UHGV virus genome: UHGV-0120889
Direction: 5' to 3' (one strand)
DNA: 64,000 nucleotides
DNA from: a virus
In this document: piece after piece, positions 36,488-57,180 of the stretch
Layout of the letters: the number at the start of each line of letters is the position of its first letter
Numbering within the stretch: position 1 is the first letter of the stretch
Program-made: the position numbers and the translations under genes
The notes under the pieces: generated by a model
What the model saw: the letters and a program-made list of their open reading frames with translations, nothing else
The model's database searches: none
Told to the model about the DNA's origin: nothing

Positions 36488-36516
36488 TCCTATCACAGCG
36501 ATAGGTAACTTTTGTG

Positions 36517-36545: not shown

Positions 36546-36546
36546 A

Positions 36547-37047: not shown

Positions 37048-37057
37048 GGTGGTGAAG

Positions 37058-39600: not shown

Positions 39601-39607
39601 TTTTAAA

Positions 39608-39627
39608 GGGGCTTCGGCCCCATTTTA
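39608..39627 (+). terminator. hairpin/attenuator between nrdA and nrdB
   Basis: GGGGC-TTCG-GCCCC followed by ATTTTAG; short U-tract, nrdB RBS immediately after. Confidence 0.4.
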
Positions 39628-39638
39628 GAGGTAGAATA

Positions 39639-40727
39639 ATGGCTGTATTTAATGCTGAGAACACCGCTCATAAAACTGGTGACTATCCGCTGTTTCTGGG
39701 ACAGCAAATGGGTATGTACGACTCTATCAACAAAAAATATCCACAACTGTTTGAACTATACAAAAAACAAAAAGAGCAAGATTGGGCAGAGGATGAAGTG
39801 GATTTGTCGCAATCTATTTCAGATTTTGTAACATGCTCAAAATCAACTTATGACGTGATGGTGCAGACCTTGATGTGGCAATGGGAGGCTGATAGCGTTG
39901 CGGCAAGATCGATCATCTGCCTCTTTTCACCATTCATCACTAATAGTGAGCTTTTCACTCTATTGATGAAACAGTCAGAGATTGAAGTTCTTCACGCACT
40001 AACTTACTCAGAGATTGTTAGACAATGCCTCCCCAATGCCCGTGAGATTATAGAAGAGATTCAGGAAAACCAAAACGTTCTGAGCAGATCCGGCGTTATT
40101 GTCAAATACATGCAAGAGCTTGAGGTTATTGGTGCAAAATACCGCCTGGATCCTTCTAGTGTTGAAGAAGATATTGTGCGGAAATGCATTCTTAGAGCGC
40201 TTTTTGCGCTTTTAGCTCTGGAAAGTATTGAGTTTATTGCAAGTTTTGCATGCACTTTCGCAGTAGCTGAACAGGGTATCTTTGTTCAGGTGGCGCAGCT
40301 TGTTCAAAAAATCATGCTTGACGAAATGCTACATTCGAAAGGTGATTTTGCCATCATTGATATCTTGCTTAATGATCCCGCATGGGAGAAAAGCTTCCTT
40401 GAGATAAAGGGGGAGTTAAAAGAGATTCTTGATGAAGTACGAACCAAAGAGTACGGTTGGAGTGACTATATTTTCAGCGAAGGAAGAGCGATTATAGGTC
40501 TTAACTCACCGTTGCTTAAAGAGTGGGTTGACTATAACTGCTCACCGATTTATGATTACTACGACATCGACAAAGACTTTGTGCCGCCAACAAAGGACCC
40601 GCTACCGTTTATGCAGGTGTGGATGAAACCTTCATTACAACAGACGGCGAACCAAGAAATGTCGAACACTGACTACCGCGTCAACACAACTGTTAACGAC
40701 GCTGAAGAAGAAATTTGGGAGTTTTAA
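39639..40727 (+). CDS. nrdB: ribonucleoside-diphosphate reductase small subunit (NrdB)
   Basis: ATG 39639 with AGAGG RBS; 363 aa helical protein adjacent to nrdA; di-iron ligand-like E/H motifs (MLDEMLHSKGD). Confidence 0.7.
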   Translation: MAVFNAENTAHKTGDYPLFLGQQMGMYDSINKKYPQLFELYKKQKEQDWAEDEVDLSQSISDFVTCSKSTYDVMVQTLMWQWEADSVAARSIICLFSPFITNSELFTLLMKQSEIEVLHALTYSEIVRQCLPNAREIIEEIQENQNVLSRSGVIVKYMQELEVIGAKYRLDPSSVEEDIVRKCILRALFALLALESIEFIASFACTFAVAEQGIFVQVAQLVQKIMLDEMLHSKGDFAIIDILLNDPAWEKSFLEIKGELKEILDEVRTKEYGWSDYIFSEGRAIIGLNSPLLKEWVDYNCSPIYDYYDIDKDFVPPTKDPLPFMQVWMKPSLQQTANQEMSNTDYRVNTTVNDAEEEIWEF

Positions 40728-40730
40728 TAT

Positions 40731-41009
40731 ATGAGCTGCGAAAAATCTTTTTTCATCATCATTTACGGTAAGGATAACTGCCCACATTGTGTCAGAGCAA
40801 AAGAATTTGCAATCAGCAAAGGTCTGCCTTTTGTATATAAGACACTTGGCGAGGGCTACACAAAAGAAGAGCTTATTGAGAAGTGCAGTCCAATCGTCCC
40901 CCGAACGTTGCCGCAGATCTTCTTAGAAAGCGATCTTGACAGTATCCATATAGGCGGTGCCGACGATTTCATCTCTTTTGTTAAGAATGGTTTTGGAGAG
41001 AAAAAGTGA
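40731..41009 (+). CDS. glutaredoxin/NrdH-like redoxin
   Basis: CPHC active-site motif in 92-aa protein between nrdB and nrdD. Confidence 0.65.
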   Translation: MSCEKSFFIIIYGKDNCPHCVRAKEFAISKGLPFVYKTLGEGYTKEELIEKCSPIVPRTLPQIFLESDLDSIHIGGADDFISFVKNGFGEKK

Positions 41010-41869
41010 AAGTTGTAAAACGGGACGGTAGAGAAGAGTTCTATAACGGAATTAAGGTGATCAAGGCGGCAGAGTCCGCCTTACTTGAGTCTGGACATAC
41101 TGAAGAAGAAGCTTACCGGATCGCTTGTGCGGTTAATGAAGTTGTTGCTAACAATCTGCCAACCGACCAGTGCACGATCTCTGTAAAAAATATCCATATC
41201 CTTGTTGAAGATGCTCTTATGGATATGGGTTTAAAATGTGCAGCCAGAGAATACATCCAGTATAGACAGACAAGAGATAATAACAGAGAGGCAGGTGGAA
41301 AACTACTTGCAGATATTAGTGGCTTCTTGGATCGAACTTGTGATGAATTTACAAAAGAAAACGCAAATAAGCCCACTAATCATGTACACACTCATCGTGA
41401 CCTGCTTGCAGGCATCCTTAGCAAACACCTTGCATCAACACAGATCCTGCCAGACCGTGTTTCAGAAGAGCACAATAAAGGCTTCATCCATGTGCATGAT
41501 CTTGACTACTTGATCAGTCCGTTAACAAACTGTTGTTTGGTAAATTATCCAGATATGTTGGAAAACGGATTCAACATTGGCAACGCCCATGTCAGTAAGC
41601 CGAAGTCAATAGGGGTTGCAACAACAATCCTTAGTCAAATCTCTAGCGCGGTAGCTAGTGCTCAATATGGTGGTCAGACTATGAGCCATATTGATCATTA
41701 TCTGGCACAGTATGCTGAAGCAACCTATGAGAAGAACCTTAAATTTTGCCAGGAACATTGGTTGCCGGATGCTGAAACTGTTGCAATGCAAATGACAGAT
41801 AAAGATGTATTTGACAGCATGCAGACTTTGCTCTATCAAATCAATACGTTAACCTCTGTCAACGGTTAA
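41006..41869 (+). CDS. nrdD: anaerobic ribonucleoside-triphosphate reductase NrdD, exon 1 (3' boundary approximate)
   Basis: ATP-cone start MKVVKRDGREE, IHVHDLD and NCCL motifs; ORF ends where intron-like sequence begins. Confidence 0.7.
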   Translation: MKVVKRDGREEFYNGIKVIKAAESALLESGHTEEEAYRIACAVNEVVANNLPTDQCTISVKNIHILVEDALMDMGLKCAAREYIQYRQTRDNNREAGGKLLADISGFLDRTCDEFTKENANKPTNHVHTHRDLLAGILSKHLASTQILPDRVSEEHNKGFIHVHDLDYLISPLTNCCLVNYPDMLENGFNIGNAHVSKPKSIGVATTILSQISSAVASAQYGGQTMSHIDHYLAQYAEATYEKNLKFCQEHWLPDAETVAMQMTDKDVFDSMQTLLYQINTLTSVNG

Positions 41870-42717
41870 CAAACTGGCCGTTGTAAAACTCTCCTAACCT
41901 CATAAGAGGGGTCGGTAAATCCGGCTAACGGGGAACGCTAAGGCGAAAGCTATGCCAATCCCGTGACTAGTTCTTACAGGAGTTGGAACGGTTGTAACGA
42001 CTAACGAAAGGCAGAGATGCTTGACAAACATTTCTGAACCAAGTAGTGTAGGGGTTAGTTGAAATACTAACTTCGAAATGGAGAGGCTCTATGAAAAAGA
42101 TCATTCTTAATGGTGAAGAATCGAACTATGTGATTGATGAGGTTGGAAACGTATACGGAAAACGTGGAATGCTACACCCAATATTGTGGGGAGGTTATGG
42201 AAAAGGTAACAAGCATGTTAAACGCCGTTATATGTACTCTTTCAACCACAAAGGTAAAAAGATTCGAATCCAAACCTCAAGGGTTGTTGCCTTGTATTGT
42301 TTGCCAGATGTCCCAGAAGACCCTGAAAACTGGGAAGTGAATCATAAAGATGGCAATACATTGAATGATCATCCGTCTAACCTAGAGTGGGTTTTGCCGG
42401 AAGATAATAAGAGACATGCTTTCCGAACAGGACTTTGTCCAGGTAAGTGCTATAGGAAAGTGCAGGCATACAAAGGGAAAATCTTGGTGGGTGAATATCC
42501 TTCACTCTATGCCTGTGCAAAAGCCTTAAATTTGAACGTAGGTAACGTTCACAGGGCTATCGAAGGAAATGCCGAAGGTAAGCATCTCACAATAAAGGGT
42601 TATTATCTTATTGAAGTAGAGTAAGAGATAGTCTGGCCCTGTGGAAACACAGGGAGGAGACAGCAGACTCCATTCATCACATTAAGTTTAGGACTAGATA
42701 CCTCGGTCTTTGGTAGA
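41870..42717 (+). mobile_element. putative group I intron in nrdD carrying an HNH homing endonuclease gene (boundaries approximate)
   Basis: ~850 bp interrupts nrdD between N- and C-terminal halves; contains free-standing HNH ORF; flanking non-coding parts are structured. Confidence 0.55.
42091..42624 (+). CDS. HNH homing endonuclease (intron-encoded)
   Basis: Classic HNH motif EVNHKDGNTLNDHPSNLEWV; located inside nrdD intervening sequence. Confidence 0.75.
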   Translation: MKKIILNGEESNYVIDEVGNVYGKRGMLHPILWGGYGKGNKHVKRRYMYSFNHKGKKIRIQTSRVVALYCLPDVPEDPENWEVNHKDGNTLNDHPSNLEWVLPEDNKRHAFRTGLCPGKCYRKVQAYKGKILVGEYPSLYACAKALNLNVGNVHRAIEGNAEGKHLTIKGYYLIEVE

Positions 42718-43926
42718 ATGATTACCAAAAACTACTTGAAAGTCCACAAAATGGGTCTTGGTGAAGAACGTATCACACCTGTGTTCCCTAAAGTGCTGTT
42801 CTTCCTGGAAGAGGGTGTCAACATGAACCCTGGGGATCCTAACTATGATTTGAAACGATTAGCTCTGGAATGCTGTGCAGAACGTATCTATCCTGACTTC
42901 GTATCTGTACCACTAAATAGAAAAGTGACAGGCTCGACAGATGGCAAAGTAACTAGCATGGGTTGCAGGAGTTTTCTTAGCAAATACAATGACTTGGAAA
43001 CAGGCGAGGAGAAATACCTTGGCAGATTTAACTTAGGCGTTGTTAGCCTTAACCTGCCAATGATTGCGGCAAAAGCTAAAACGGAAGGTGTTGATTTCTT
43101 TGCAGTTCTTGACGAATACCTGGATCTTGCATACGAGGCTCACCTTGTAAGGGTTAATCGTCTAAAAGGGACAAAGGCAGGGCAGAACCCTATCATGTGG
43201 TGTGAAGGCGCTCTTGCTCGCCTGGACCCTGAAGAGAGTATTGATAAACTCTTCTATGACGGGTACGCTTCCATCAGTATTGGGTATATTGGTGTGTATG
43301 AAACCTGTCAGATTTTGGGCAGAGAGGGTGACAAGGCTTTAGCTCTTGGAATCCTTCAGCACATGAGAGATGCTTGTGAGCGACACAAGAAGGAAAGTAG
43401 ACTAGCGTTTAGCTTGTACGGCACCCCTTCTGAGAGTCTATGCTATAAAGCTGCAACCTGTCTGGATCGTGAATATCCTGAAGTGTTGAAGCACGAGCAT
43501 GAATATCTCACCAACAGTTTCCATCAGCCAGTATGGATCAATAGCTCTCCTTTTGATAAGTGGGAGTATGAGGAAGGTTTTGCTATGATCTCCTCTGGTG
43601 GCAACATCGGATACGTAGAGACACCAAATCTGAAAAACAACTTAGATGCTTTGGAAGCTCTTGTTGATTTCGGATATAAACACATTATGTATTTTGGTAT
43701 TAACCAACCTGTGGATAAATGTCTCAAGTGTGGTTTCTCTGGTGAGTTCAGTGCAACAGCTAAAGGCTTTGTATGCCCAGAGTGTGGAAACCATGAAGAG
43801 GGAACGATCAGTGTAATTCGACGTGTGTCTGGATACCTTTCCAGTCCTAACTCCCGTCCTTACAATAAAGGTAAGCAAGCGGAAGTTATCGAGCGAGTTA
43901 AGCACTACGGAAGTTGTGGTTGCTGA
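42718..43926 (+). CDS. nrdD: NrdD exon 2 (5' boundary approximate; frame open from 42625)
   Basis: C-terminal zinc ribbon CLKCGFSG...CPECGN and glycyl-radical motif RRVSGYL. Confidence 0.7.
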   Translation: MITKNYLKVHKMGLGEERITPVFPKVLFFLEEGVNMNPGDPNYDLKRLALECCAERIYPDFVSVPLNRKVTGSTDGKVTSMGCRSFLSKYNDLETGEEKYLGRFNLGVVSLNLPMIAAKAKTEGVDFFAVLDEYLDLAYEAHLVRVNRLKGTKAGQNPIMWCEGALARLDPEESIDKLFYDGYASISIGYIGVYETCQILGREGDKALALGILQHMRDACERHKKESRLAFSLYGTPSESLCYKAATCLDREYPEVLKHEHEYLTNSFHQPVWINSSPFDKWEYEEGFAMISSGGNIGYVETPNLKNNLDALEALVDFGYKHIMYFGINQPVDKCLKCGFSGEFSATAKGFVCPECGNHEEGTISVIRRVSGYLSSPNSRPYNKGKQAEVIERVKHYGSCGC

Positions 43927-43989
43927 TTCTTGACAAAAGCCACAAGAATGTGGCATATTATTGACACACAGTGAGCTAGGAGGTGCAGT

Positions 43990-44106
43990 ATGTCATCAGG
44001 TATTTATAAAATTTGCAAGTGCGGCTGTAGTTGTAATCTTCGTTGGTGCAAGGCACTAGACGATTTTATTTGGCATTGCCCTAAATGTGATGCGGAGTAT
44101 CTATGA
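43990..44106 (+). CDS. small Cys-rich zinc-ribbon-like protein (38 aa)
   Basis: AGGAGG RBS 6 nt upstream; CKCGCSC...WHCPKCD; stop overlaps nrdG start. Confidence 0.45.
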   Translation: MSSGIYKICKCGCSCNLRWCKALDDFIWHCPKCDAEYL

Positions 44107-44576
44107 ACATTGCTGGATACACAGAAATATCTTACACCGAAGGACCAGGTATTAGAACTGCCTTGTGGGTATCTGGGTGCCCACACGCTTGCCCTGGTTG
44201 CTTTAATCAGGCATTTTGGTCAAAAGATAAGGGGAGGAAGTTCACTGAAGAAGACTTGCAAAAAATCTTGTCAGATTTAGATAACCCGTCTGTGTGCGGT
44301 ATCTCTCTACTAGGTGGAGAACCCTTAGCATACTATAATGAGCCAGATATTATTAGCCTGATGGAGAAAATTAAGGAAAAATTTGGTGACAAGAAAACTA
44401 TTCTTGTATATACTGGGTTCACATTTGACCATATCTCTAGTGATGTTCTTAAACTGGCTGATATCATCATTGACGGTAAGTATGTAAAAGATTTACCAAC
44501 CAAGAAACCGTTCCGAGGCAGTGATAACCAAAGAATGTTTAAAAAAGTATCAGGCGGTTGGGTTCAGGTAGACTAG
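44103..44576 (+). CDS. nrdG: anaerobic RNR activating protein NrdG (radical SAM)
   Basis: CPHACPGC cluster motif near N-terminus; 157 aa; directly after nrdD. Confidence 0.75.
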   Translation: MNIAGYTEISYTEGPGIRTALWVSGCPHACPGCFNQAFWSKDKGRKFTEEDLQKILSDLDNPSVCGISLLGGEPLAYYNEPDIISLMEKIKEKFGDKKTILVYTGFTFDHISSDVLKLADIIIDGKYVKDLPTKKPFRGSDNQRMFKKVSGGWVQVD

Positions 44577-44579
44577 TTG

Positions 44580-44609
44580 TTGACAAAGCTTTGTTGAGTT
44601 GGTTATAAT
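44580..44609 (+). promoter_or_regulatory. sigma70-type promoter
   Basis: TTGACA (44580) - 18 bp - TATAAT (44604). Confidence 0.6.
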
Positions 44610-44638
44610 TGCCGTAATGAAAGCAGAGGAGGTGCCAA

Positions 44639-44752
44639 ATGGCTAAAAAAGCCTTGAAGAAGGCGTACAAGAAAGAGATTGCGCTTGAGCTTAAGAAAAA
44701 ACACAAGCGTGAAAAGAAACATCATGAAGATGAAGAGGGGGTGCAACAGTGA
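44639..44752 (+). CDS. small highly basic protein (37 aa)
   Basis: GAGGAGG RBS; Lys-rich MAKKALKKAYKKEIALELKKKHKREKKHH. Confidence 0.4.
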   Translation: MAKKALKKAYKKEIALELKKKHKREKKHHEDEEGVQQ

Positions 44753-45099
44753 CACAAGAACGTATCGATTTGGCTAATAAGTTTGTAGATCTCATTTTGC
44801 CACGGTTAGTTACTCAACATGCAGATGCTATTTCTACTAATCTTGATGGCTTACGCCTAATGCTGAATCGCACAGATGACCCTCGTATTCGGGCTGATTT
44901 AGAAGCCTCTGCCAACAAACTGGAAAAGTTCTTGCAAGTAGACACGCAAGAAGCCTTGCACAAGATTATGGTGGAAGGTTTCTCTAAAGAATTTACCATT
45001 AAAGAGCTTAAGGAGCTGATCCACCAAGAAGAGATGAATATCCGAGTTCAGGCTGTTGCAAGCAGCATGGAAGCGGCTATTGAAAAACTGTTGCAGTAA
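44749..45099 (+). CDS. hypothetical protein (116 aa)
   Basis: ORF track (GTG start overlapping previous stop). Confidence 0.4.
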   Translation: MTQERIDLANKFVDLILPRLVTQHADAISTNLDGLRLMLNRTDDPRIRADLEASANKLEKFLQVDTQEALHKIMVEGFSKEFTIKELKELIHQEEMNIRVQAVASSMEAAIEKLLQ

Positions 45100-45137
45100 A
45101 AGTACTTGGCACATCTCAATCTGAAAGGAGTCCCAAC

Positions 45138-45926
45138 ATGGGTCGAGCTAAAGAAACAAAACGCATGCGTGATGAAGCTAGAGAGGCTCGCAAATCTGAT
45201 CGCCTGCGTAAGGCTGCTGAGAAATTTGCTGACGAAAGAGAGCACACCGCTCCAGCTCTCCGACCAATGAATAAGAAGCAGCAAAAGTATCTTGATTATC
45301 TAGGGTCACGTAAGATTATTATTGTAAACGGTGTGTTTGGATCTGGTAAGACATTCATGGCATCTGCATATGCAGGTGATCTTCTGCGTAAGAACGAGAT
45401 TGATAAGATTATTGTTGCACGTCCTTACGTTCAGACAGGAAAGACTTCAGGATTTAAACCTGGAAATGCAATGCAGAAACTGTGGCCCTATCTTCGAAGC
45501 ATGATGGACACGATTTGTCGTCGTGTTGGCAAAGGTGCTTTTGCCGCAATGCTGGGAGACGGTCAGAACAGCCGTATCGAGATTTGTGAAGTTGAAAGCA
45601 TTCGTGGTCGTAGTTTCGATGAGCGATGCTTTGTCCTGATTGACGAGGCACAGCAAACTAACCCTGAAGAAATGTTGTCAATTATCACAAGGATCTCTGA
45701 TCAAGCCACCCTTGTAATTATGGGTGATAATAGCCAACGTGACATCCCTGGTAAATCTGGCCTTGCATGGGTGACGGATTTCTTTACTCGTCATCCAGAT
45801 CCTGAGGTTGGAATGATCAGCTTTGATAGTCCAGACGATGTCGTTCGTTCTGGGTTGGGTCGTCAGATCGCACTCAATCTTATTGAGGATCGTGCAAATC
45901 ATATTTGGACCCCTGTTTCCGAGTAA
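45138..45926 (+). CDS. phoH: PhoH-like ATPase
   Basis: Walker A GVFGSGKTFMA, PhoH-like layout, Walker B-like VLIDEAQ. Confidence 0.75.
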   Translation: MGRAKETKRMRDEAREARKSDRLRKAAEKFADEREHTAPALRPMNKKQQKYLDYLGSRKIIIVNGVFGSGKTFMASAYAGDLLRKNEIDKIIVARPYVQTGKTSGFKPGNAMQKLWPYLRSMMDTICRRVGKGAFAAMLGDGQNSRIEICEVESIRGRSFDERCFVLIDEAQQTNPEEMLSIITRISDQATLVIMGDNSQRDIPGKSGLAWVTDFFTRHPDPEVGMISFDSPDDVVRSGLGRQIALNLIEDRANHIWTPVSE

Positions 45927-45970
45927 TACAGAAGGGTGGTTATTCCACCCTTAAATATCTAAAACAGTTG

Positions 45971-45999
45971 TTGACAAATAGGTAAGCTTTAGATATTAT
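45971..45999 (+). promoter_or_regulatory. sigma70-type promoter
   Basis: TTGACA (45971) - 17 bp - TATTAT (45994). Confidence 0.6.
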
Positions 46000-46027
46000 T
46001 ATCGGACAAAACAGAGAGAAGGACAGT

Positions 46028-46339
46028 ATGGCTACAATACAAGAGAAACTGAATAAAATATACTGCCTGTTTGTCTATAACGGCGAGACAATTTTGGCAA
46101 ATAAAGGATCCAAGAATGTGTGGACCAAGGACAGTGGTGGTAATATAATTAACTTAGCGTTGCTACGTGAGCGCCGACACAGATTCTTTATCGAGTCTCG
46201 AATTATTGAAAGCAGCACTTGCTACAGAACAGGCGATAAAGTAATTGTTGACAATGATACGTGGTATGTGGTAGACTGGCAATCATTGAGTTGTGATGCT
46301 TCTGACAATCGTAAGTATTCCCTAGTGATTGCTAAATAA
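46028..46339 (+). CDS. hypothetical protein (103 aa)
   Basis: ORF track. Confidence 0.4.
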   Translation: MATIQEKLNKIYCLFVYNGETILANKGSKNVWTKDSGGNIINLALLRERRHRFFIESRIIESSTCYRTGDKVIVDNDTWYVVDWQSLSCDASDNRKYSLVIAK

Positions 46340-46399
46340 AGGTAAATGTGAATCAGGTTTAAATAAATAGCTTTCAACTTCCAATATTAAGGATTTCTC

Positions 46400-47449
46400 A
46401 TGAATTTAACACCTCGCAGCACCATGGTACACGGCATGAAAGAAAAACAGAACGGTTTCGAACCTATGAGTAATAAAATGTTTGGTATGCCGGGTGGTAT
46501 TATGGAAACATACAGCTACCCAACACCTGTTGTTGACCACGTTCTTTATATCGACGATTTGGAAGACCTGCAGGATCATATGTCTCGTCTGCAGACGATC
46601 CGTATGGCTCAGCCGGAAGAAAGCATTCGGGTGATCATCAATAGCCCTGGGGGTTGCGTGAACATTGCAATGGCTTATCTACAGGCATTCCGCGAGTCTC
46701 AGGCAAGCGTTGTTGCACATGCTGAAGGGATGTGCTGCTCTGCGGGAACAATCTTATGGCTGGGTTGTAAAGAACGCACTGTGGCTCCGGACACAGAATT
46801 TATGTTCCACTACTATCAAGGTGGCACCTATGGTAATGGTGTGAACATGAATACTCAGGTCAGCTACTGGAAAAAACGTTTTGAACGCCTGATCGAAAAA
46901 TACTACGGTGGGGTGCTGACAGAAGATGAGATCGCATCCATCACAGCTGGTGGTGAAGTGTGGTTGGACGGAGAGGAGCTGGCAGCTCGAACTGGAGCCA
47001 TCGTTCTGGATGAAGGCAACATACAGCGCATCCAGAACGGACAAAAACCTAAAAAGCTTTTGGCAAAAGGTGATGAAGAAGGTGTGCTAGGTGAAGCAGG
47101 TCTTCCGGAGATTCACCAGTGCACCTCTTTAGATGAGCTAGTTCATGCTGTTGAATCTGCAAAAGCGGGTGGTTCGAAAGGTGATGTTCACACTGTGTTC
47201 CTGAACCTGCAGATGGAAAGTGGTGAGACCGTTAAGATTGCCTTAGGCGAGATTACCTCAGAAGATCTGCAGCGATTCTCTGTCGTTGAACTTCAAGACA
47301 TTCTGTCCCAATTGAAGACAACCCTGAACGGCGGTGAAGAGGTTAAGGTAAAAGATAAGACTCGCAAGCGTCTGGTGGACAATATTATTAAAACAGCAAA
47401 AGAGCTCAATGAAAAAATCCTGGGTGCAGGAATTGTCGAAGAAGCTTAA
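46400..47449 (+). CDS. ClpP-like serine protease (S14/S49 fold) with N- and C-terminal extensions
   Basis: INSPGGCV, GMCCSAGTIL (Ser) and FMFHYYQGG (His) align with ClpP catalytic core motifs. Confidence 0.65.
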   Translation: MNLTPRSTMVHGMKEKQNGFEPMSNKMFGMPGGIMETYSYPTPVVDHVLYIDDLEDLQDHMSRLQTIRMAQPEESIRVIINSPGGCVNIAMAYLQAFRESQASVVAHAEGMCCSAGTILWLGCKERTVAPDTEFMFHYYQGGTYGNGVNMNTQVSYWKKRFERLIEKYYGGVLTEDEIASITAGGEVWLDGEELAARTGAIVLDEGNIQRIQNGQKPKKLLAKGDEEGVLGEAGLPEIHQCTSLDELVHAVESAKAGGSKGDVHTVFLNLQMESGETVKIALGEITSEDLQRFSVVELQDILSQLKTTLNGGEEVKVKDKTRKRLVDNIIKTAKELNEKILGAGIVEEA

Positions 47450-47462
47450 ACATTAATTCTAA

Positions 47463-47487
47463 AGCCCTCTTCGGAGGGCTTTTATGA
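47463..47487 (+). terminator. rho-independent terminator
   Basis: AGCCCTC-TTCG-GAGGGCT hairpin followed by TTTATGAT. Confidence 0.55.
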
Positions 47488-47500
47488 TCTGGAGATTTGC

Positions 47501-48034
47501 ATGACTTGTGCTCGAAAACCTGATGAACAACGTAACGCCTACGATGAGTATGTGACACCGGAGTGGTGTGCAGAAGGGCTGTACGACCTTATTCCGTTCC
47601 CAGAAGACTGGACCTACTTAGAGCCTTGCAGGAATAGTGCCTCAGGTGTGTTCTACTCCCGTATGCCGTTAGGATCTGCATGGGGAGAAATCCAAGAAGG
47701 TGTTGACTATCTGAATACAGAATACAACCATGTTGACTGTATTATCACCAACCCACCATACAGTTTGGCTCGTGAGTTTGTAGACAAGGCGTTGAAAGAT
47801 GCTGACGTAGTTATTATGCTTTTGCGTCTTAATTTTCTGGAAAGCAAAGCCAGATTTGAATGGTGGCTTGATAATGCACCTACCACTGTGATCACAATAT
47901 CTAAGCGTCCATCTTTTCAATCAAATGGCAGAACTGACGGGCAAGCATATGCATATTTTGTGTGGGATAAGAAAAACCGTTTAGGCTTGCCGCCATTTAT
48001 GTGGTTGGCACCCCCAGAGGTAGACCTGAAATGA
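47501..48034 (+). CDS. small DNA N6-adenine methyltransferase-like protein (NPPY)
   Basis: Motif IV IITNPPY plus upstream YVTPEW; 177 aa. Confidence 0.55.
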   Translation: MTCARKPDEQRNAYDEYVTPEWCAEGLYDLIPFPEDWTYLEPCRNSASGVFYSRMPLGSAWGEIQEGVDYLNTEYNHVDCIITNPPYSLAREFVDKALKDADVVIMLLRLNFLESKARFEWWLDNAPTTVITISKRPSFQSNGRTDGQAYAYFVWDKKNRLGLPPFMWLAPPEVDLK

Positions 48035-48315
48035 AAATGAGTGCTAAGGACAAATTACACCAGCTAGCGCTAAAACGCCCTGTAACGCTCCCTGACGAGC
48101 TTAACTCCATTTATGATGCGATTGTAGGGGAGATACAAAATAAAGCGTTAGCAGGCTTTCTGGGGTGCGGATTTTCGATAAATCTACCCTCGCATCTCTC
48201 AGATTACTTCCCGCACATTGTTGGAGATTTAAGGGCAGGAGGTCTGCAGGTAGATGTTGTTGGCATCTCCCCAGAGAAAAATAATACGGTTGCCTACTTG
48301 ACAGTAACCTGGTAG
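48031..48315 (+). CDS. hypothetical protein
   Basis: ATG 48031 overlapping methyltransferase stop (ATGA). Confidence 0.4.
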   Translation: MKMSAKDKLHQLALKRPVTLPDELNSIYDAIVGEIQNKALAGFLGCGFSINLPSHLSDYFPHIVGDLRAGGLQVDVVGISPEKNNTVAYLTVTW

Positions 48316-48351
48316 TTGTGTATTGTTGTTTTCAACAAGAGGGGGTCATTT

Positions 48352-48591
48352 ATGTACAAGTCATTTTCAATCTACTCAAGACAGGCGAAACACTACACAG
48401 AGATCCTGATCACTCAGAAAAAATTTGTGGAAGGTGAGTGGGAATATCACCATAAAATGTTGCGTCCAGACTGGGTTTTTGATAGACTTATTGCTATGAT
48501 CCCTCTCGGAGAAGTATACCCTCTGACAGCCCATCGCGATGCTTGGGATTTAATTGATTACATAGATTCATTTAAGGAGCCTAGATTATGA
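48352..48591 (+). CDS. hypothetical protein
   Basis: ATG 48352 with GAGGGGG RBS. Confidence 0.4.
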   Translation: MYKSFSIYSRQAKHYTEILITQKKFVEGEWEYHHKMLRPDWVFDRLIAMIPLGEVYPLTAHRDAWDLIDYIDSFKEPRL

Positions 48592-48986
48592 AGATTGAGA
48601 TTACTAAAGAAGGTAAGAAAGTGTCCGGCAACTATGCAACAGTAATTCGGGATTTAATGTTTGAAGCCACCAAGATCGGTACATCTAAAGTTGGTCAAAC
48701 TGTTAGTGTGAAAAGTAATATCTCCACAGGAGAGAAGGTATTCATTGTGGTCAAAGGGCAGGATCCCGTGGAAGGAACAGTGGGCCGAGGTGGCTACCTG
48801 TGCATTTCTGAAGAGCCGCGTATGTTAGTGGCTGACGCTACTATGGGTGGGAAACGTGTGTGCGAGGCGGATGAGGTAATGATTATCCAACCTGTTGATC
48901 CAGATGACCCAGCAACTTGGGTGGTAGGAAATGAAATCTTCTCTTTAGAAGAGTTATCCTTCCCAGCACCGCGCTCTGTTCAGTAA
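48588..48986 (+). CDS. hypothetical small protein (MKIEIT N-terminus)
   Basis: ORF track. Confidence 0.45.
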   Translation: MKIEITKEGKKVSGNYATVIRDLMFEATKIGTSKVGQTVSVKSNISTGEKVFIVVKGQDPVEGTVGRGGYLCISEEPRMLVADATMGGKRVCEADEVMIIQPVDPDDPATWVVGNEIFSLEELSFPAPRSVQ

Positions 48987-49023
48987 TAATTTATCTTACC
49001 AGGGACGGTAGGTAGGAGGTAGC

Positions 49024-49257
49024 ATGAAAGTTAAATTTCTTACAGATTTAGGGTACCCTTCCTTGGTTGACTGTGTTGGTAAAATTGTGGAAGCAAAACG
49101 GCTATCTGCAAACGAGAATGTTGTCCTGGTTAAAGGGAAGGATTTACTAGCTGCAGGTGCAGAGTCTGGCAGGATCTCTCCTGATTATATGTATTACCTA
49201 TCTTTAAGTAATCTGCCAGAGCGAGGCGGTAAAGGCCTTGAAGTTGTGGAGGAGTGA
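49024..49257 (+). CDS. small acidic protein, paralog family member
   Basis: MKVKFLTD N-terminus and acidic C-terminus GLEVVEE shared with other family members. Confidence 0.45.
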   Translation: MKVKFLTDLGYPSLVDCVGKIVEAKRLSANENVVLVKGKDLLAAGAESGRISPDYMYYLSLSNLPERGGKGLEVVEE

Positions 49258-49787
49258 CAGGTATGCTTCTGATTAACTGGGAAGACCTCTATGGGGACAA
49301 AGACCCTGTTGCGTTTGTTGATCGTAGGTGGAGATACACTGAAGAACAACTGGCGGCAAAAAATTTAACTGCAAAACGCAGAAAGATCATCCAGTGCAAG
49401 TACAAATACGCACAGTTTGCTGCAAAAGTGTCTCCACAAATCGAGAGCTTTGTGCTTAAATTGTATGACGAGTACCTCAAATTCAAATTGGATTTTGTGC
49501 AGGTGTACCGTGCACAGGTACGACCAGATACCAACATATGTAGATGGAAGGTTGTTTGTGACGGTAAAGATTTGCCGCTCAGCTTGACAATTGAGTGGCG
49601 TTATGGGTATCATGAGTGTGGTCTGTATGATATTTGGGATGTCATTGTAGATCCTGCTAAGCACCTGAACACAGAGGAGCTGGAATATATCAATAAGATT
49701 ATTCTTGATATGTTTTTCAGCTACACCCGTGAAAACTCTGGGAAAGAACGGGATAATTTTCTTGACACCCTCAGCGACCATTTGTAG
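49254..49787 (+). CDS. hypothetical protein (177 aa)
   Basis: ORF track. Confidence 0.45.
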   Translation: MTGMLLINWEDLYGDKDPVAFVDRRWRYTEEQLAAKNLTAKRRKIIQCKYKYAQFAAKVSPQIESFVLKLYDEYLKFKLDFVQVYRAQVRPDTNICRWKVVCDGKDLPLSLTIEWRYGYHECGLYDIWDVIVDPAKHLNTEELEYINKIILDMFFSYTRENSGKERDNFLDTLSDHL

Positions 49788-49790
49788 TAT
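49762..49790 (+). promoter_or_regulatory. sigma70-type promoter (overlaps 3' end of previous gene)
   Basis: TTGACA (49762) - 17 bp - TAGTAT (49785). Confidence 0.45.
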
Positions 49791-49817
49791 ACAATTTAAC
49801 CTACAAAGGGAGGCCCA

Positions 49818-50045
49818 ATGAGTATAAATGTTGTGCTAATAGGTTACCTGGTAATATCCGTTATAACAGCGGTATTCTTGACAGGTATATGCATCGTGTC
49901 CAGACGAAGGGTGAAGTTTGATGATTTTATCACCATCATCACTGCTGCGCCTTTTTGGCCTGTTGTTATCTTCATCGTAATAATGTGCCTAGTTGATTAC
50001 TACAAGAATATCCGGAAGGAGAGTAGGGATGGAGACCACACCTAA
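49818..50045 (+). CDS. small membrane protein (two predicted TM helices)
   Basis: Hydrophobic stretches VVLIGYLVISVITAVFLTGICIV and IITAAPFWPVVIFIVIMCLV. Confidence 0.45.
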   Translation: MSINVVLIGYLVISVITAVFLTGICIVSRRRVKFDDFITIITAAPFWPVVIFIVIMCLVDYYKNIRKESRDGDHT

Positions 50046-50181
50046 AACTGTTTATACTGTTCTTAAAGAGATTGCGTTCTACGCAGATCTTAGCCAGGCA
50101 CCTTTATGGGAAAAGAGCATGTATTTAAAATGGTGCGTTAATTTAGGGAGACCTTCCAGTGTTTCAAGCCATGTTTATTGA
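50029..50181 (+). CDS. hypothetical small protein
   Basis: ATG 50029 with GGAAGGAG RBS; overlaps previous gene by 17 nt. Confidence 0.35.
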   Translation: METTPKTVYTVLKEIAFYADLSQAPLWEKSMYLKWCVNLGRPSSVSSHVY

Positions 50182-50278
50182 GATGCTATCTGGGGTATTG
50201 TTACTGGTAGCCATCTTAGGTGGTGCAGTTCTGATGTATAACTATCTTGAAAAAGGAGACAGCAATGGCAAAAAATAA
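50171..50278 (+). CDS. micro-ORF encoding hydrophobic peptide (35 aa)
   Basis: MFIEMLSGVLLLVAILGGAVLMYNYL; no clear RBS. Confidence 0.3.
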   Translation: MFIEMLSGVLLLVAILGGAVLMYNYLEKGDSNGKK

Positions 50279-50450
50279 ATCTTTAGAGCAGGCTGAAAAC
50301 CTTCTCCACGAGCTGGTAAAGGAGTGGAAAGTTGAATACTCAGATTTTAATGCACGAGAGGGTGAAGATTATTGGCCTACGGAGCGCTCAGAGGGCGAAT
50401 GGTATCAAGATTTTATAGAGTGGTTATATCAGACGTGCGATGAGGGGTGA
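50265..50450 (+). CDS. hypothetical protein
   Basis: ATG 50265 with AAGGAG RBS. Confidence 0.45.
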   Translation: MAKNKSLEQAENLLHELVKEWKVEYSDFNAREGEDYWPTERSEGEWYQDFIEWLYQTCDEG

Positions 50451-50908
50451 CGATGTTTGTTAAATATGTAAAAACGTGCCTCAACAGTCTTGGCAGAGAG
50501 CATTGGTACACCTTACTTGAAAAAGGAGAAATTTTAACAAAATCTGGAAAGATAACTTTGATACCCTTGGACGATAAAGACCCGTCACTCCTTGTCATAG
50601 ATGATTACGTTACAGGTGTGTCGTACGAGGTCTCTGTGGAGAGGTTAATACGCAGAGCTGGCGGCCCTTATGACCGAAGAGAGTATATTTTCGATTCTGT
50701 TACAGAGAAGGAAGATCCGTCTCTAATGTTCAGGATGGTAATCAGGGATATGAAATCATCTATAAATAGGATCGTAAAGGACATTAAGGAGCCTTTTAGG
50801 GTAAAAGTTAAGAAGTTTTTTGATTCTAAGATTAACATACTTGCCGTTGTGCTAGGCGTAATTCAACTTCTGTTAATTTTGCACTATCTTGAACTGTTGT
50901 TTAAGTAG
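50447..50908 (+). CDS. hypothetical protein with C-terminal TM segment
   Basis: ORF track; C-terminal NILAVVLGVIQLLLILHYL. Confidence 0.45.
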   Translation: MTMFVKYVKTCLNSLGREHWYTLLEKGEILTKSGKITLIPLDDKDPSLLVIDDYVTGVSYEVSVERLIRRAGGPYDRREYIFDSVTEKEDPSLMFRMVIRDMKSSINRIVKDIKEPFRVKVKKFFDSKINILAVVLGVIQLLLILHYLELLFK

Positions 50909-50968
50909 TGTGCAATAAGGCACAAAGGATGTGCCATAACTAAATAAACTAAGAAAGAGGTAGAGAGA

Positions 50969-51316
50969 ATGCCAAAGATTAAATCGATATTAATGTGGGT
51001 AGCTGTTGTAGCTTTTGTAGGATACTGGACTTGGGAAACTGAATTAAAAGATATTGGATATACTAGTTTTGAGAGCAAGGCGTGCATTGGTATAACCGAT
51101 GCGTTCAGGCAAAATGCTATGGATCACGAATGTGTTGATGCAGATATAGATGAGAAACTGTCTAAGGACAAAGATTTTTACCATGGGCATGCTTTGCTTG
51201 ATAGTGGTGATACTGTAGAGTTCTGGTCGTGGTTCCGTGAAGATGGAACAATAAAAACAGCAGTAAAGATCTCTAACAAAGAGTTAATGCTGTTGCAGCA
51301 GAAGGAGGCTCAATGA
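50969..51316 (+). CDS. hypothetical protein with N-terminal TM/signal segment
   Basis: AGAGG RBS; N-terminal ILMWVAVVAFVGYW. Confidence 0.45.
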   Translation: MPKIKSILMWVAVVAFVGYWTWETELKDIGYTSFESKACIGITDAFRQNAMDHECVDADIDEKLSKDKDFYHGHALLDSGDTVEFWSWFREDGTIKTAVKISNKELMLLQQKEAQ

Positions 51317-51600
51317 TCTGGATATCCTATGCTGATGGCACCATGCTGTATACTGCAGGTACCAGATATGAAGTTCAGGAGAACGATAAAAAATTTATCG
51401 TAAGAACATTTGACAAGGACGACAACCTTTTGCTAGAATTGACTTACAAGGTTGGAGAGGTATCCAATATCCAATTGGATTGTGGTCATAAAGATAATCC
51501 ACTCAAAAAACCTGGAATAGGCAAGGCTTCAGAAGAACGTTTGTCTCGTATTGCAGAAAGCGTTTCTACACAAAAATCTAAGAAGGGGACTAGAAAATGA
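51313..51600 (+). CDS. hypothetical protein
   Basis: ORF track; coupled overlap. Confidence 0.4.
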   Translation: MIWISYADGTMLYTAGTRYEVQENDKKFIVRTFDKDDNLLLELTYKVGEVSNIQLDCGHKDNPLKKPGIGKASEERLSRIAESVSTQKSKKGTRK

Positions 51601-51791
51601 AAAACTTACGTTTTAACACTTATTACTACAACACATTGAATGATTTGTACTATATTGTTCGAAGTAAAAGTCCTGAAACAGTCCTATTCTGCCGTGAACC
51701 TTTCAAAGGGGAGGAAGTAGAGTCTGAGATGAATGTTAGCCAAATCACCTCTTTGTTGCTCTCAGGCGCAATGGAAGAAGCAATATTCTAA
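51597..51791 (+). CDS. hypothetical protein
   Basis: ORF track; coupled overlap. Confidence 0.4.
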   Translation: MKNLRFNTYYYNTLNDLYYIVRSKSPETVLFCREPFKGEEVESEMNVSQITSLLLSGAMEEAIF

Positions 51792-51809
51792 ACCGGGCGG
51801 GAGGGTTTT

Positions 51810-51995
51810 ATGAAGCACTATTGCCTGTCTGGTAGAATGGGTGCAGATTGTGATTGGGTTTTCTTAAAACTTGTCAGCATTCGAGAGTTCATCCCAGAGG
51901 AAGAGCAAGAAAGCGAGCTGATGTCATGGATCAACCATTATGGTAACACTTTTCGACATGTTAAGGTAGAAGAGTTGCCAAGCGAGGCTGATTGA
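51810..51995 (+). CDS. hypothetical protein
   Basis: ORF track. Confidence 0.4.
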   Translation: MKHYCLSGRMGADCDWVFLKLVSIREFIPEEEQESELMSWINHYGNTFRHVKVEELPSEAD

Positions 51996-51997
51996 CT

Positions 51998-52087
51998 ATG
52001 ATTGCATCAATATTAACGTTTATGGGTGGCGTGGCATTCGGATTCATTGTTTGCCTGTTTATAGTGATTATGTCTATGCGAGGCTGA
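51998..52087 (+). CDS. micro-ORF encoding hydrophobic peptide (29 aa)
   Basis: MIASILTFMGGVAFGFIVCLFIVIMSMRG; fills gap between genes. Confidence 0.35.
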   Translation: MIASILTFMGGVAFGFIVCLFIVIMSMRG

Positions 52088-52090
52088 ATT

Positions 52091-52387
52091 ATGAAACTTT
52101 TTGAGTGGTTTAAAAAGTTTAAATATAAAGCTGTAGCCATCGTGCCGTGGTCAATTCAGTGGGTTGATGAAGGTGGTCTACCAATACCTGGTGACAAAGA
52201 TACTGGGTACTGGATTATGATGGAGAACGGGTTTGGAAAGCGAAAGTATACGTGCACAAACTCTACTCGATCTGCACTTAATAGAGTGCCTGGTTACAAA
52301 CTTATGGTTGTGTGGAAAATGTCAGGCGTCCCTCCAGCCAATGCTCAATTTCTTACTGACAATCCTACCACGGTAGAGGAAGATTGA
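52091..52387 (+). CDS. hypothetical protein
   Basis: ORF track. Confidence 0.4.
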   Translation: MKLFEWFKKFKYKAVAIVPWSIQWVDEGGLPIPGDKDTGYWIMMENGFGKRKYTCTNSTRSALNRVPGYKLMVVWKMSGVPPANAQFLTDNPTTVEED

Positions 52388-52671
52388 TAATGAAAAAGAT
52401 TAACAGTAGTGAAGTCGAGTTTAAACTTGTCGGAAAAGGCACTTACTGGGAAGTTCGTCAAAAGGTATATTTGTTCGGTCTTATTCCTTACTGGTCTAAA
52501 TTCTACTGGGGAGCTAACGAGTGGGGAAGATACGCCACCAAATCAATGGCACTTATTGGTATAGCAGAGTACATTGCAGCCAGAGATAGGGTTGGAGACA
52601 CTTATTACTATACTGCGGACGATATTCGTAACAGTGTTTACGTCCCACAACCACCTGATAGAGACCGTTGA
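52384..52671 (+). CDS. hypothetical protein
   Basis: ORF track. Confidence 0.4.
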   Translation: MIMKKINSSEVEFKLVGKGTYWEVRQKVYLFGLIPYWSKFYWGANEWGRYATKSMALIGIAEYIAARDRVGDTYYYTADDIRNSVYVPQPPDRDR

Positions 52672-52882
52672 TGAAAGTTAAAGTTTTAGATTCAAGCTTC
52701 TATATTGGTCAGGAGCCCTTAGTGGGGAAGTGTTTACTGCTGTCCCTAACGAAGATTACCCCGACCTTTTAAAAATAAAAGGAGCAGACCTGATCACCGC
52801 TGGTGCACCTGAATATTATTTCGGGGAAGAGTCCTATTATACCTTTGGGGTAGGGTCAGATGCAGATATTGTAGAGCTGTGA
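52671..52882 (+). pseudogene. frameshifted member of the small acidic protein family (or programmed -1 frameshift)
   Basis: 33-codon ORF MKVKVLDSSFYIGQEP... stops at 52770; -1 frame continues KIKGADLITAGAPEYYFGEESYYTFGVGSDADIVEL with family-type C-terminus; junction in TTTTAAAAATAAAA run. Confidence 0.4.
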
Positions 52883-52894
52883 TGGGTAACCGTT

Positions 52895-53293
52895 GTGAAA
52901 AATAAACTGTTCAAAGTTACAATGAAAATTCGCGGAGCTTGGAGCGTAAAGCAAGGGCGTATTCCAGAATTTGAGAAAGACTTCTACGTAGTCTCCACCT
53001 CGGAGGAGGCTGCATGCTGGCAAGCTGGCTATGCCTATGCAAGAACCTGGTACGAAGGATACCAGACTGGGGGCTATGACGGAGAAATTATCAGCAAGGG
53101 TGTAGAAGAAATTAATGTGTTGACAAGTGAAAAAGTTTTTGTTATAGTGCATCCAGATTCCAGAGTGAAGCATTACTGGAATGCCAGAACAAAAACTTGG
53201 ACACCGTTTGCAGATTCTGCTACGCCACTTTTAAACCAGAAAGCTCTTGACTCTGCCCCAAGTTATGGGGTTGTTGAAGAAAAGCTAAACTGA
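52895..53293 (+). CDS. hypothetical protein, paralog of 55100..55495
   Basis: Shared C-terminal motif HP.S...YW.....WTP....AT.L with 55100..55495. Confidence 0.45.
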   Translation: MKNKLFKVTMKIRGAWSVKQGRIPEFEKDFYVVSTSEEAACWQAGYAYARTWYEGYQTGGYDGEIISKGVEEINVLTSEKVFVIVHPDSRVKHYWNARTKTWTPFADSATPLLNQKALDSAPSYGVVEEKLN

Positions 53294-53310
53294 AACAGTG
53301 AGGTGCCACT

Positions 53311-53601
53311 ATGATGGATTTAGTTCTGAATATTGATAACGCAGGAGAGCTTAAAGACGATGGTGTAACAAGCATGGACAAACCCTGCTCTGCCGAGGTT
53401 GACTCAAAATGGACCTACAAGTTTGACGGAGAGATCTTCGCAAATGATGAGAAGGTTGTAGATGCTGCAGCCATTTTGAACGCTTTAGGGTACGACCCTG
53501 TGAATTCTTTGATCAAGGATCCTGTTGAGTTTGCAGAGTATGTTCGAAAAATGGCAGATCTTGCTGTGGATATTTTAAAAACTATCGATAACAAGCTGTA
53601 A
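53311..53601 (+). CDS. hypothetical acidic protein
   Basis: ORF track; AGGTG RBS. Confidence 0.4.
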   Translation: MMDLVLNIDNAGELKDDGVTSMDKPCSAEVDSKWTYKFDGEIFANDEKVVDAAAILNALGYDPVNSLIKDPVEFAEYVRKMADLAVDILKTIDNKL

Positions 53602-53607
53602 AAACTG

Positions 53608-53636
53608 TTGACACAACGCTTCAGATTTAGTATCAT
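53608..53636 (+). promoter_or_regulatory. sigma70-type promoter
   Basis: TTGACA (53608) - 17 bp - TATCAT (53631). Confidence 0.55.
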
Positions 53637-53683
53637 TGTTTTCAAAGAGGGTTTGGTTCCCTCTTCTTTAAAAGGAACACGTT

Positions 53684-54001
53684 ATGCAAATTGAAATCAC
53701 TGGCAACGTAGAAATCACTGAAGGTATGGTGTCTTTCATTTCCCACAAAATGTCTAAGCTGGAGCGTTTGCACCCCTCTGCCAACTATGCACGTGTGAGT
53801 GTAAAAGTTGAAAATGATCACCAGGAAGTTATGGCGTTCATTTTTGACAATTCCGGAAAAGAAGTTATTGCCAAAGCTAAAGGTAGCGATGCTTACGAGG
53901 CAACTGACCGTATGGTAGATGTTGCAGCACGTCAGCTGGCTAAATGTGGTGGAAAGAAAGGTAAGGGGAAAGGCAAAGTAAAGATTGACTTTGTAGAATG
54001 A
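53684..54001 (+). CDS. ribosome hibernation promoting factor / RaiA (YfiA) homologue
   Basis: MQIEITGNVEITEGMVSFISHKMSKLE...AKGSDAYEATDRMVDVAARQLAK matches HPF/YfiA family pattern (ITG..EIT....KL....D.Y.A.D....RQL.K). Confidence 0.7.
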   Translation: MQIEITGNVEITEGMVSFISHKMSKLERLHPSANYARVSVKVENDHQEVMAFIFDNSGKEVIAKAKGSDAYEATDRMVDVAARQLAKCGGKKGKGKGKVKIDFVE

Positions 54002-54138
54002 GGTGCTACAATGAGCGTGATTAAGAAATTAGTCCCAAATGTAGAGATTGCATGCTTTGAAATTATGTTTGCAATCGCAGTTGTAGTTAATGTGTTAGGT
54101 TACGGCTATTAATATCAAATAATTGAGGAGACCTCTAA

Positions 54139-54408
54139 ATGAAAATTAAATTATTCAAAACTGAGCTGGCAGACAAAAACTGTGGACTGGTTGAAGGCAT
54201 GATTGTTGAAGCACAACCAGTGGACTATATGAAGGTGGTTCGTGATGCCCTGGGTGAAGGTTTTGATCTGATGGAGCCAGCTCTGCGAGAAGATGTTATC
54301 GAGATGGCTAAAAAGCACACACCTGAGGGTTTGGTGGTGTTTGTTGCACCTGGTAATGGAGAAGAGTTGATTGTAACTCCTGATGTGTATGAGATTGTAG
54401 AGGAATAA
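54139..54408 (+). CDS. small acidic protein, paralog family member
   Basis: MKIKLFKT N-terminus; C-terminus TPDVYEIVEE. Confidence 0.45.
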   Translation: MKIKLFKTELADKNCGLVEGMIVEAQPVDYMKVVRDALGEGFDLMEPALREDVIEMAKKHTPEGLVVFVAPGNGEELIVTPDVYEIVEE

Positions 54409-54499
54409 TCCTGCTTGGATTAGCATACTTCCTCGCTAAGGAAGATTTGTAATTATTTGTGGGAAAGGAATCCCAATCTCTTACCAGAGGTGATACTAT

Positions 54500-54763
54500 A
54501 TGATTGTTTATTTTAAAACTTCAGGTGGATACCCTGATTCTCAAAGCTTGATCGGAAAAACGTGCACAGCATACTCACCTCTTGATGAGGAGGTAAGTGA
54601 TATTCTACGAAATATGTATCGGATTGACCCCCAAGAAGCTTTTGATCAAAACCTTGTATTTGTCAAGGGCTCAGACATGAAGTCTTTGGGAGCATTCCCT
54701 GAAGCAGATGATGATGCCGTTTATTCGTTCATGACTCCTTTTGAAGCTATGGTTGTTGGGTGA
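54500..54763 (+). CDS. hypothetical small protein
   Basis: ORF track. Confidence 0.4.
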   Translation: MIVYFKTSGGYPDSQSLIGKTCTAYSPLDEEVSDILRNMYRIDPQEAFDQNLVFVKGSDMKSLGAFPEADDDAVYSFMTPFEAMVVG

Positions 54764-54767
54764 TAAT

Positions 54768-55495: not shown

Positions 55496-55513
55496 TTTTC
55501 TTGCACACAGGTG

Positions 55514-55544
55514 TTGACAACGCCAACCCTGTGTGAAATAATAC
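55514..55544 (+). promoter_or_regulatory. sigma70-type promoter
   Basis: TTGACA (55514) followed 18-19 bp later by ATAATA/TAATAC. Confidence 0.45.
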
Positions 55545-55574
55545 CTTCATCTTAACAAGACAGGAGACCGATTG

Positions 55575-56879: not shown

Positions 56880-56888
56880 GGTGCTTGT

Positions 56889-57152: not shown

Positions 57153-57180
57153 CAGTATAGTGACTAACAAGAGGTGAGGG

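Follow-up and report, generated by a model that had tools for sequence, protein, structure and literature searches.

A ClpP-like serine peptidase gene among the DNA-metabolism genes of an rV5-like phage, apart from a complete head module

Introduction

The described counterpart of the gene treated here is gp122 of phage rV5, a protein of 349 amino acids (aa) labelled "ClpP (ATP-dependent) protease subunit", whose nearest outside relative is the homologue in phage ICP1 (PMC3606486 Table S3). In the records of the BASEL phages the gene is labelled "ClpP-like protease". A literature search returned no function described beyond annotation, and the ICP1 capsid paper does not address the ICP1 protein, gp211. 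Here we analyzed the counterpart found in UHGV virus genome UHGV-0120889, of which a stretch of 64,000 nucleotides (nt), hereafter the window, was available. The gene lies at 46400..47449 on the plus strand. With a rough probability of 0.55, we read its product as a non-structural, catalytically competent peptidase of the ClpP fold, made together with DNA-metabolism genes and acting in the cytoplasm without docking to ClpX or ClpA, the capsid being matured by a separate XkdF-type enzyme.

Protein fold and active site

The gene, its catalytic core and the codons of the catalytic residues were located as follows:

46400..47449, plus strand: accessory ClpP-like serine peptidase gene, 349 aa (open reading frame (ORF), Pfam CLP_protease, PHROG 5410, orthologue of rV5 gp122)
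46532..47044, plus strand: ClpP-fold catalytic core, residues 45–215, including the handle helix at 147–169 (predicted local distance difference test score (pLDDT) >90; Foldseek ClpP matches)
46739..46741, plus strand: codon of the catalytic nucleophile, Ser114, corresponding to Ser97 of E. coli ClpP (alignment to 1tyf)
46808..46810, plus strand: codon of His137, equivalent to ClpP His122
46955..46957, plus strand: codon of Glu186, aligned with the third triad residue of ClpP, Asp171 (alignment)

The ORF is intact, and 6 nt before its ATG stands the ribosome-binding site AAGGA. Over positions 9500–15500 the window was 100% identical to Escherichia phage slur16 (Vequintavirus slur16, Vequintavirinae, rV5-like myoviruses). 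The DNA of the protease gene was 98.4% identical to the best-matching phages rV5_ev146, nomo and EduardKellenberger, and 119 phage records carried a counterpart at 90–99% identity. The protein was 98–99% identical to proteins annotated as ClpP-like or ATP-dependent protease. The gene and its ClpP-like nature were already present in databases and literature, and it is an ordinary family member here.

Profile searches recognized the protein as CLP_protease (PF00574; E = 1.7e-12, 48 bits against a cut-off of 20.2). The PHROG 5410 family, "ATP-dependent protease", matched residues 24–345 (E = 1.3e-154) and PHROG 1827 matched with E = 2.2e-40. By sequence, ClpP chains from the PDB matched at E = 4e-8. 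The Peptidase_S49 profile (PF01343) gave no match at E ≤ 1. The AlphaFold model, built with 42 homologues as input, had a pLDDT above 90 over residues ~45–220, and when it was compared with the PDB by Foldseek the top 50 matches were all ClpP (E ~3e-11, TM score ~0.7 on the target, ~165 aligned residues). The protein failed the NCBIfam equivalog and subfamily models for ClpP, with 33 bits against a cut-off of 308.6 for TIGR00493 and 38 against 249 for PRK00277.

The protein has the ClpP fold and is S14-like, not S49. An S49 assignment was rejected, since no S49 profile matched and the invariant His occupies the position of ClpP His122. A preliminary description, made from the sequence alone, had called the core ClpP/S49-type from three motifs, all of which are present: INSPGG at residues 80–85 (46637..46654), GMCCSAG at 110–116 (46727..46747) and FMFHYYQGG at 134–142 (46799..46825). 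The ClpP part of that label was borne out by Pfam and Foldseek and the S49 part was not; the profile search of S14 versus S49 that it proposed came out S14-like, with His137 at the ClpP His position.

For the catalytic residues we used the E. coli ClpP sequence identical to PDB 1tyf_A, a family alignment of 153 sequences (148 of the 50%-identity cluster representatives, the window protein and four earlier matches) and a Vequintavirinae-like alignment of 19 sequences. Both Ser114 and His137 were invariant (153/153). The third triad column was more variable, with D108/E30/Q10/T4/M1, that is D or E in 138/153. Within Vequintavirinae this position held Glu in the rV5-like genus and Gln in most sister genera. 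Glu186 of the window protein would be compatible with an active triad. Listeria ClpP1 has Asn at the third triad position and shows weak activity, and the Gln variants are therefore perhaps attenuated.

Docking surface for Clp ATPases

Cellular ClpP receives the IGF loops of ClpX, the IGL loops of ClpA and acyldepsipeptides (ADEPs) in a hydrophobic pocket lined by Y60, Y62, F82, I90 and M92. Its residues are known from ClpXP and ADEP-ClpP structures, for example 3MT6, 3KTI and 6WR2. In the protease protein these five positions aligned to R77, I79, E99, H107 and E109. The mapping, which is an alignment-level test, agreed between two alignments, one by HMMER to Photorhabdus ClpP and one by MAFFT. 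R77, E99, H107 and E109 were invariant in the 19 Vequintavirinae-like sequences. Across the family alignment, the F82 column read E65/N21/D18/Q13/S11, with an aromatic residue in none of the 153 sequences, and the M92 column read E101/D15, so that 116/153 sequences were acidic there. No sequence corresponding to the N-terminal axial loop of ClpP was present in the alignment, and some relatives (Barbavirus) begin at strand beta-1.

As aligned, the ClpX/ClpA docking pocket is replaced family-wide by conserved polar or charged residues. Because the pocket is absent, the name "ATP-dependent protease subunit", which is passed on from database to database, looks unjustified.

Head module and capsid maturation

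The head genes of the window lie on the minus strand:

9719..10726, minus strand: major capsid protein, lambda-E-type
10779..11165, minus strand: decoration protein
11186..12163, minus strand: very acidic helical protein of 325 aa in scaffold position, between the prohead protease and decoration genes (PHROG 2970, unknown function)
12163..12738, minus strand: XkdF-like Peptidase_S78_2 prohead protease, between the portal and the scaffold-like protein (Pfam 1.1e-17)
12650..14206, minus strand: Mu-type portal
About 14309..15397 and 15747..16175, minus strand: large terminase, split into two annotated coding sequences (annotation)

The head module is canonical and complete without the ClpP-like gene. 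That it contains a prohead protease candidate had been noted from the sequence, and the candidate proved to be of the XkdF/S78_2 type (HK97 clan), its longest ORF spanning 12163..12738. Equally, the ClpP-like gene had been described as distant from the head module, and it is, at ~34 kb and on the opposite strand. We considered whether it could be a displaced prohead protease; this is unlikely, since an S78_2 protease and a scaffold-like protein are already encoded in the head module.

In BASEL vequintaviruses and in M5.1 the annotation given to homologues of the XkdF-like protein is "prohead protease"; in ICP1 it is "capsid protease". The 11186..12163 protein is, by analogy, probably an unannotated scaffolding protein: ICP1 has an experimentally confirmed 39-kDa scaffold at the matching position. 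In T4-like phages, the prohead protease is gp21. A separate prohead protease coexists with the ClpP-like gene in other phages too, being XkdF-type in ICP1 and M5.1, and ORF164 besides ORF45 in BF23 (PMC10644984).

Two annotation matters concern the same module. The slur16 RefSeq entry, like some others, names the XkdF-like protease gene "DNA methyltransferase", a label also borne by PHROG 1530, its best PHROG match. The PHROG 1530 match covered the C-terminal part only (positions 218–373 of the 379-position profile), and for this reason the label is probably a misannotation, spread from methyltransferase-protease fusions. In ECML-10 and SophiaRose, an HNH endonuclease gene is inserted within the terminase region (window 14309..16175), matching the terminase introns reported for rV5.

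Distribution and gene context

By tblastn, the catalytic core was found in 1055 phage records. An exhaustive profile search recovered 7482 clusters at 50% identity with E ≤ 1e-3, and 1778 with E ≤ 1e-10. All 16 contexts inspected were replication or nucleotide-metabolism clusters, and none was in a head module (0/16). The gene orders were:

Vequintavirus: nrdAB, grx, nrdDG, phoH, one gene, protease
ICP1: nrdB, phoH, two genes, protease, ligase
Vibrio phages 193E37-1 and helene 12B3: layout as in ICP1
Otagovirus M5.1 and UAVern: phoH directly adjoining the protease
Barbavirus: phoH, protease, dam
Two uncultured phage contigs: nrdA, nrdB, grx, phoH, 3–4 genes, protease
PAK_P1: protease, dCMP deaminase, ligase
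N4-like AD45-P3: nrdA, nrdB, one gene, protease
T5-like Sugarland and Slocum: dnk, protease, holin
KVP40-like VH7D: frd, protease, uvsX
Jumbo phage RAS14: NAD ligase, protease, primase-like gene
pf16: primase-like gene, protease, RuvC

A phoH gene was located 0–4 genes upstream of the protease, on the same strand, in 9/16 contexts (Vequintavirus, ICP1, the two other Vibrio phages, Otagovirus, UAVern, Barbavirus and the two uncultured contigs). Ribonucleotide reductase and glutaredoxin genes were frequently found further upstream of the phoH/protease pair. The T5-like, T4-like, N4-like and PAK_P1 phages kept the protease without an adjoining phoH. We did not accept the synteny with phoH as proof of functional coupling: the lineages also share the order of the module (nrd, grx, ligase, dCMP deaminase), and because this surrounding order is shared too, the phoH-protease synteny is explicable by common descent.

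Promoters and neighboring genes

The window was scanned for near-consensus sigma-70 promoters, defined as matching at least 11 of 12 positions. The scan found 15 sites, where by a rough estimate about 1 is expected by chance. Eleven were on the plus strand, all at 26.6–59.6 kb (26605..59640), within or just past the block of plus-strand genes. The minus strand had no near-consensus site in the region of the head genes (8–16 kb), and among the structural genes on this strand a single site was found (4574..4602). Two plus-strand sites precede the protease gene and its neighbors:

44580..44609, plus strand: perfect TTGACA-18-TATAAT, upstream of ORF 44749 and phoH (consensus match)
45138..45926, plus strand: PhoH-like ATPase gene (NCBIfam PhoH 3.6e-40), a recurrent neighbor upstream of the ClpP-like gene across many phage lineages
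45971..45999, plus strand: TTGACA-17-TATTAT, 29 nt before ORF 46028, which precedes the protease gene (consensus match; putative promoter)
46028..46339, plus strand: ORF of 103 aa, annotated as hypothetical, between phoH and the protease gene (ORF call; no Pfam match)

ORF 46028..46339 and the protease gene are probably co-transcribed. The arrangement fits transcription of the protease gene by unmodified host RNA polymerase, with early or middle expression, and the distribution of promoter-like sites suggests a clean division between host-polymerase-driven genes and late genes.

Directly 3' of the ClpP-like gene there was a putative N6-adenine DNA methyltransferase gene (47501..48034, plus strand), with a weak NCBIfam match (E = 0.006). 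In Barbavirus, a DNA adenine methylase gene (L010 4274..5086) also directly follows the protease, giving the order phoH, protease, methylase as in the window. The window further carried a tRNA cluster of seven genes (Pro, Met, Thr, ???, Ser, Tyr, Arg), in which ARAGORN called, at 17525..17623 on the minus strand, a tRNA-like gene of 99 nt whose anticodon has four bases (atcc). This gene may be a pseudogene, contain an intron or encode a frameshift-suppressor-like tRNA.

Terminal extensions

Outside the catalytic core, the protein has two further regions:

46400..46531, plus strand: N-terminal extension, residues 1–44, predicted disordered (pLDDT <50 for residues 1–42)
47117..47428, plus strand: C-terminal domain, residues ~240–343, with a helix, a beta-hairpin and two long helices (F293, E297 and R322 invariant)

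The extensions had been put at about 55 aa on the N-terminal and 170 aa on the C-terminal side; we found ~44 aa and ~135 aa. The N-terminal arm carries two motifs conserved in the subfamily, N-x-F/M-G-[MFIYL] (F28, G29) and YSYP (Y40, P41). In the wider family, a hydrophobic-Gly-hydrophobic motif was not enriched (19 sequences observed, 14.3 expected from shuffles). Mimicry of the IGF loop by the N-terminal F-G-M motif was not adopted, the motif being conserved in the Vequintavirinae-like subfamily only and not enriched family-wide; we kept it among the low-probability alternatives.

A variable charged linker (residues 216–239) separates the core from the C-terminal domain, and rV5-like phages have one additional helix in the C-terminal region. 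As only ~7 of the 50%-identity clusters cover this region, its architecture is specific to Vequintavirinae-like phages. The domain had no Pfam match, and the best hit of a PDB sequence search had E = 1.1. Searching BFVD with it gave one significant match, an unnamed protein of 303 aa that probably belongs to the family itself. The domain may contain an element of the helix-extended-helix (SAP/Rho_N-like) type.

Discussion

A cytoplasmic, non-structural ClpP-fold peptidase would fit the locus in the following way. The gene would most likely be transcribed by host RNA polymerase alongside nrdAB, nrdDG and phoH, and not with the late head genes. By homology with ClpP, the protein would probably assemble into rings enclosing the active sites, and from sequence its Ser114-His137-Glu186 triad is predicted to be catalytically competent. 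It would act in the cytoplasm of the infected cell, independently of an ATPase. Since the protein lacks the hydrophobic pocket for docking and the axial-loop sequence at its N-terminus, a partnership with host ClpX or ClpA is not expected. Recognition of substrates or partners would probably fall to the C-terminal domain, specific to Vequintavirinae, and to the conserved motif near the N-terminus, and capsid maturation would be left to the XkdF-type protease of the head module. The preliminary description had left open whether the enzyme acts on host proteins or is a second maturation protease. A role outside the capsid is favored by the complete head module, the DNA-metabolism contexts, the promoters and the rV5 virion list.

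Several observations weigh against this reading or speak for a link with the capsid. After its own family, the closest profile families were the ClpP-related head-maturation proteases: PHROG 1684 matched at 7e-22, above cellular ClpP, and the NCBIfam model Clp_rel_HeadMat (NF045542) scored 60 bits, below its cut-off of 120 and higher than cellular ClpP. Capsid maturation proteases of Gordonia, Arthrobacter and Bacteroides phages were detectable as homologues, and the helical C-terminal extension recalls scaffold or targeting tails. The T5-like homologue, BF23 ORF45, whose role its authors describe as not known at present, was found at trace level in virion mass spectrometry, with 3 peptides (PMC10644984). 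The protein could be a second protease associated with the capsid: a packaged enzyme, or one that serves maturation as a displaced or auxiliary protease. Its C-terminal domain would then target the procapsid, as in ClpP-type protease-scaffold fusions. We consider this unlikely. Between the portal and capsid genes there are already a canonical protease and a scaffold-like protein. The ClpP-like gene is 34 kb off on the opposite strand, preceded by sigma-70 consensus promoters and placed among the nrd/phoH genes. A C-terminal domain of any kind is missing from most family members (~200 aa). The rV5 gp122 was not among the 19 proteins listed from virion mass spectrometry, a dataset which is itself shallow. 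The BF23 signal amounted to ~1/1400 of the capsid protein and came from particles precipitated with polyethylene glycol, in which DHFR was also present (PMC10644984). As related in the same paper, maturation in T5 relies on the phage's own prohead protease (Huet 2016, via PMC10644984).

Two further points against a cytoplasmic, ATPase-independent peptidase concern the protein itself. The loss of the docking pocket is deduced from alignments, and the Gln at the third triad position of many sister-genus orthologues may lower the activity there. The first bears on whether the protein could recruit host ClpX or ClpA, or mix with host ClpP, so that the phage would retarget an ATP-dependent protease, in line with the name used in databases. 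E. coli supplies both ATPases, the ClpP fold is conserved with its handle helix and Gly-rich strand, the Pfam CLP_protease score exceeds the gathering cut-off, and the partly conserved N-terminal ~44 aa could make a non-canonical interface. We nevertheless hold such recruitment to be quite unlikely, given R, I, E, H and E in the pocket for the IGF/IGL loops, polar across the 153 family members, the absent axial-loop sequence and the TIGR00493 score far under its cut-off. The second point would suit a protein that works less as a protease than as a modulator of host proteolysis, such as a ring capping or poisoning host ClpP, or sequestering Clp adaptors or ATPases, with the N-terminal motif mimicking the IGF loop. 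N-x-F/M-G-[MFIYL] is conserved in the disordered arm of the Vequintavirinae-like subfamily, and the KVP40-like VH7D protein has a similar NNIGW. We give this hardly any credence: Ser and His, invariant in the whole family alignment, argue for retained catalysis, and the motif count family-wide was close to that of the shuffles. A little credence, still low, goes to a phage-specific degradation module that dispenses with the host Clp ATPases and of which the peptidase would form one half. It might work with the PhoH-like nucleoside triphosphatase, or as an ungated chamber degrading unfolded or nascent host proteins during takeover, by analogy with ADEP-deregulated ClpP.

If true, a PhoH-coupled module or an ungated chamber would be a new kind of phage-encoded proteolytic system for host takeover. 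About a thousand sequenced virulent phages carry accessory ClpP-like genes, among them the models T5, ICP1 and the BASEL collection, and such genes are also represented in thousands of protein clusters from metagenomes. Identifying the proteins that are cut, whether host, defence or early phage proteins, would fill a real gap in the understanding of host takeover. To what was on record for this gene, our analysis adds its S14-like rather than S49-like nature, the family-wide lack of the pocket as read from alignments, the recurrence next to nrd and phoH genes, and a lineage-specific C-terminal domain without recognizable relatives.

Comparison with known systems

Cellular ClpP (MEROPS S14; E. 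coli, 1TYF) has the same fold and handle helix as the window protein, with Ser and His in the same positions and the His followed by the GG motif. Identity is ~20%, and the window protein differs in having Glu for Asp171, in R77, E99, H107 and E109 in place of the pocket, in its extra N- and C-terminal regions and in lacking the ClpP N-terminal loop sequence. The ClpP-related head-maturation proteases (NF045542; PHROGs 1684, 94, 2976 and 133) are ClpX-independent enzymes of the ClpP fold, as the window protein is predicted to be. Unlike them, the window gene is placed between phoH and the methyltransferase gene, outside the head module, and another prohead protease (S78_2) is present.

Closer to it are the short accessory ClpP-like proteases of PHROG 1827, that is T5.042/BF23 ORF45, Sugarland gp045, PAK_P1 gp173c, M5.1 gp43 and those of VH7D and AD45-P3. 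They belong to one large family with the window protein, and their catalytic core is homologous (25–36% identity): Ser and His do not vary, and the third residue is acidic or Gln. Also shared are the polar surface where ClpP has its ClpX pocket, the early or DNA-metabolism location and the separate prohead protease. The C-terminal domain of Vequintavirinae and the N-x-F-G motif are absent from them, and their third residue is mostly Asp, not Glu. ICP1 gp211, of the same group, bears an unrelated tail of its own. The rV5 gp122 and its Vequintavirinae orthologues (PHROG 5410) have the same length and the same neighbors: nrdAB, grx, nrdDG, phoH, a small ORF, the protease and the N6-adenine methyltransferase. 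Between gp122 and the window protein there is no substantive difference, and slur16 carries the same gene.

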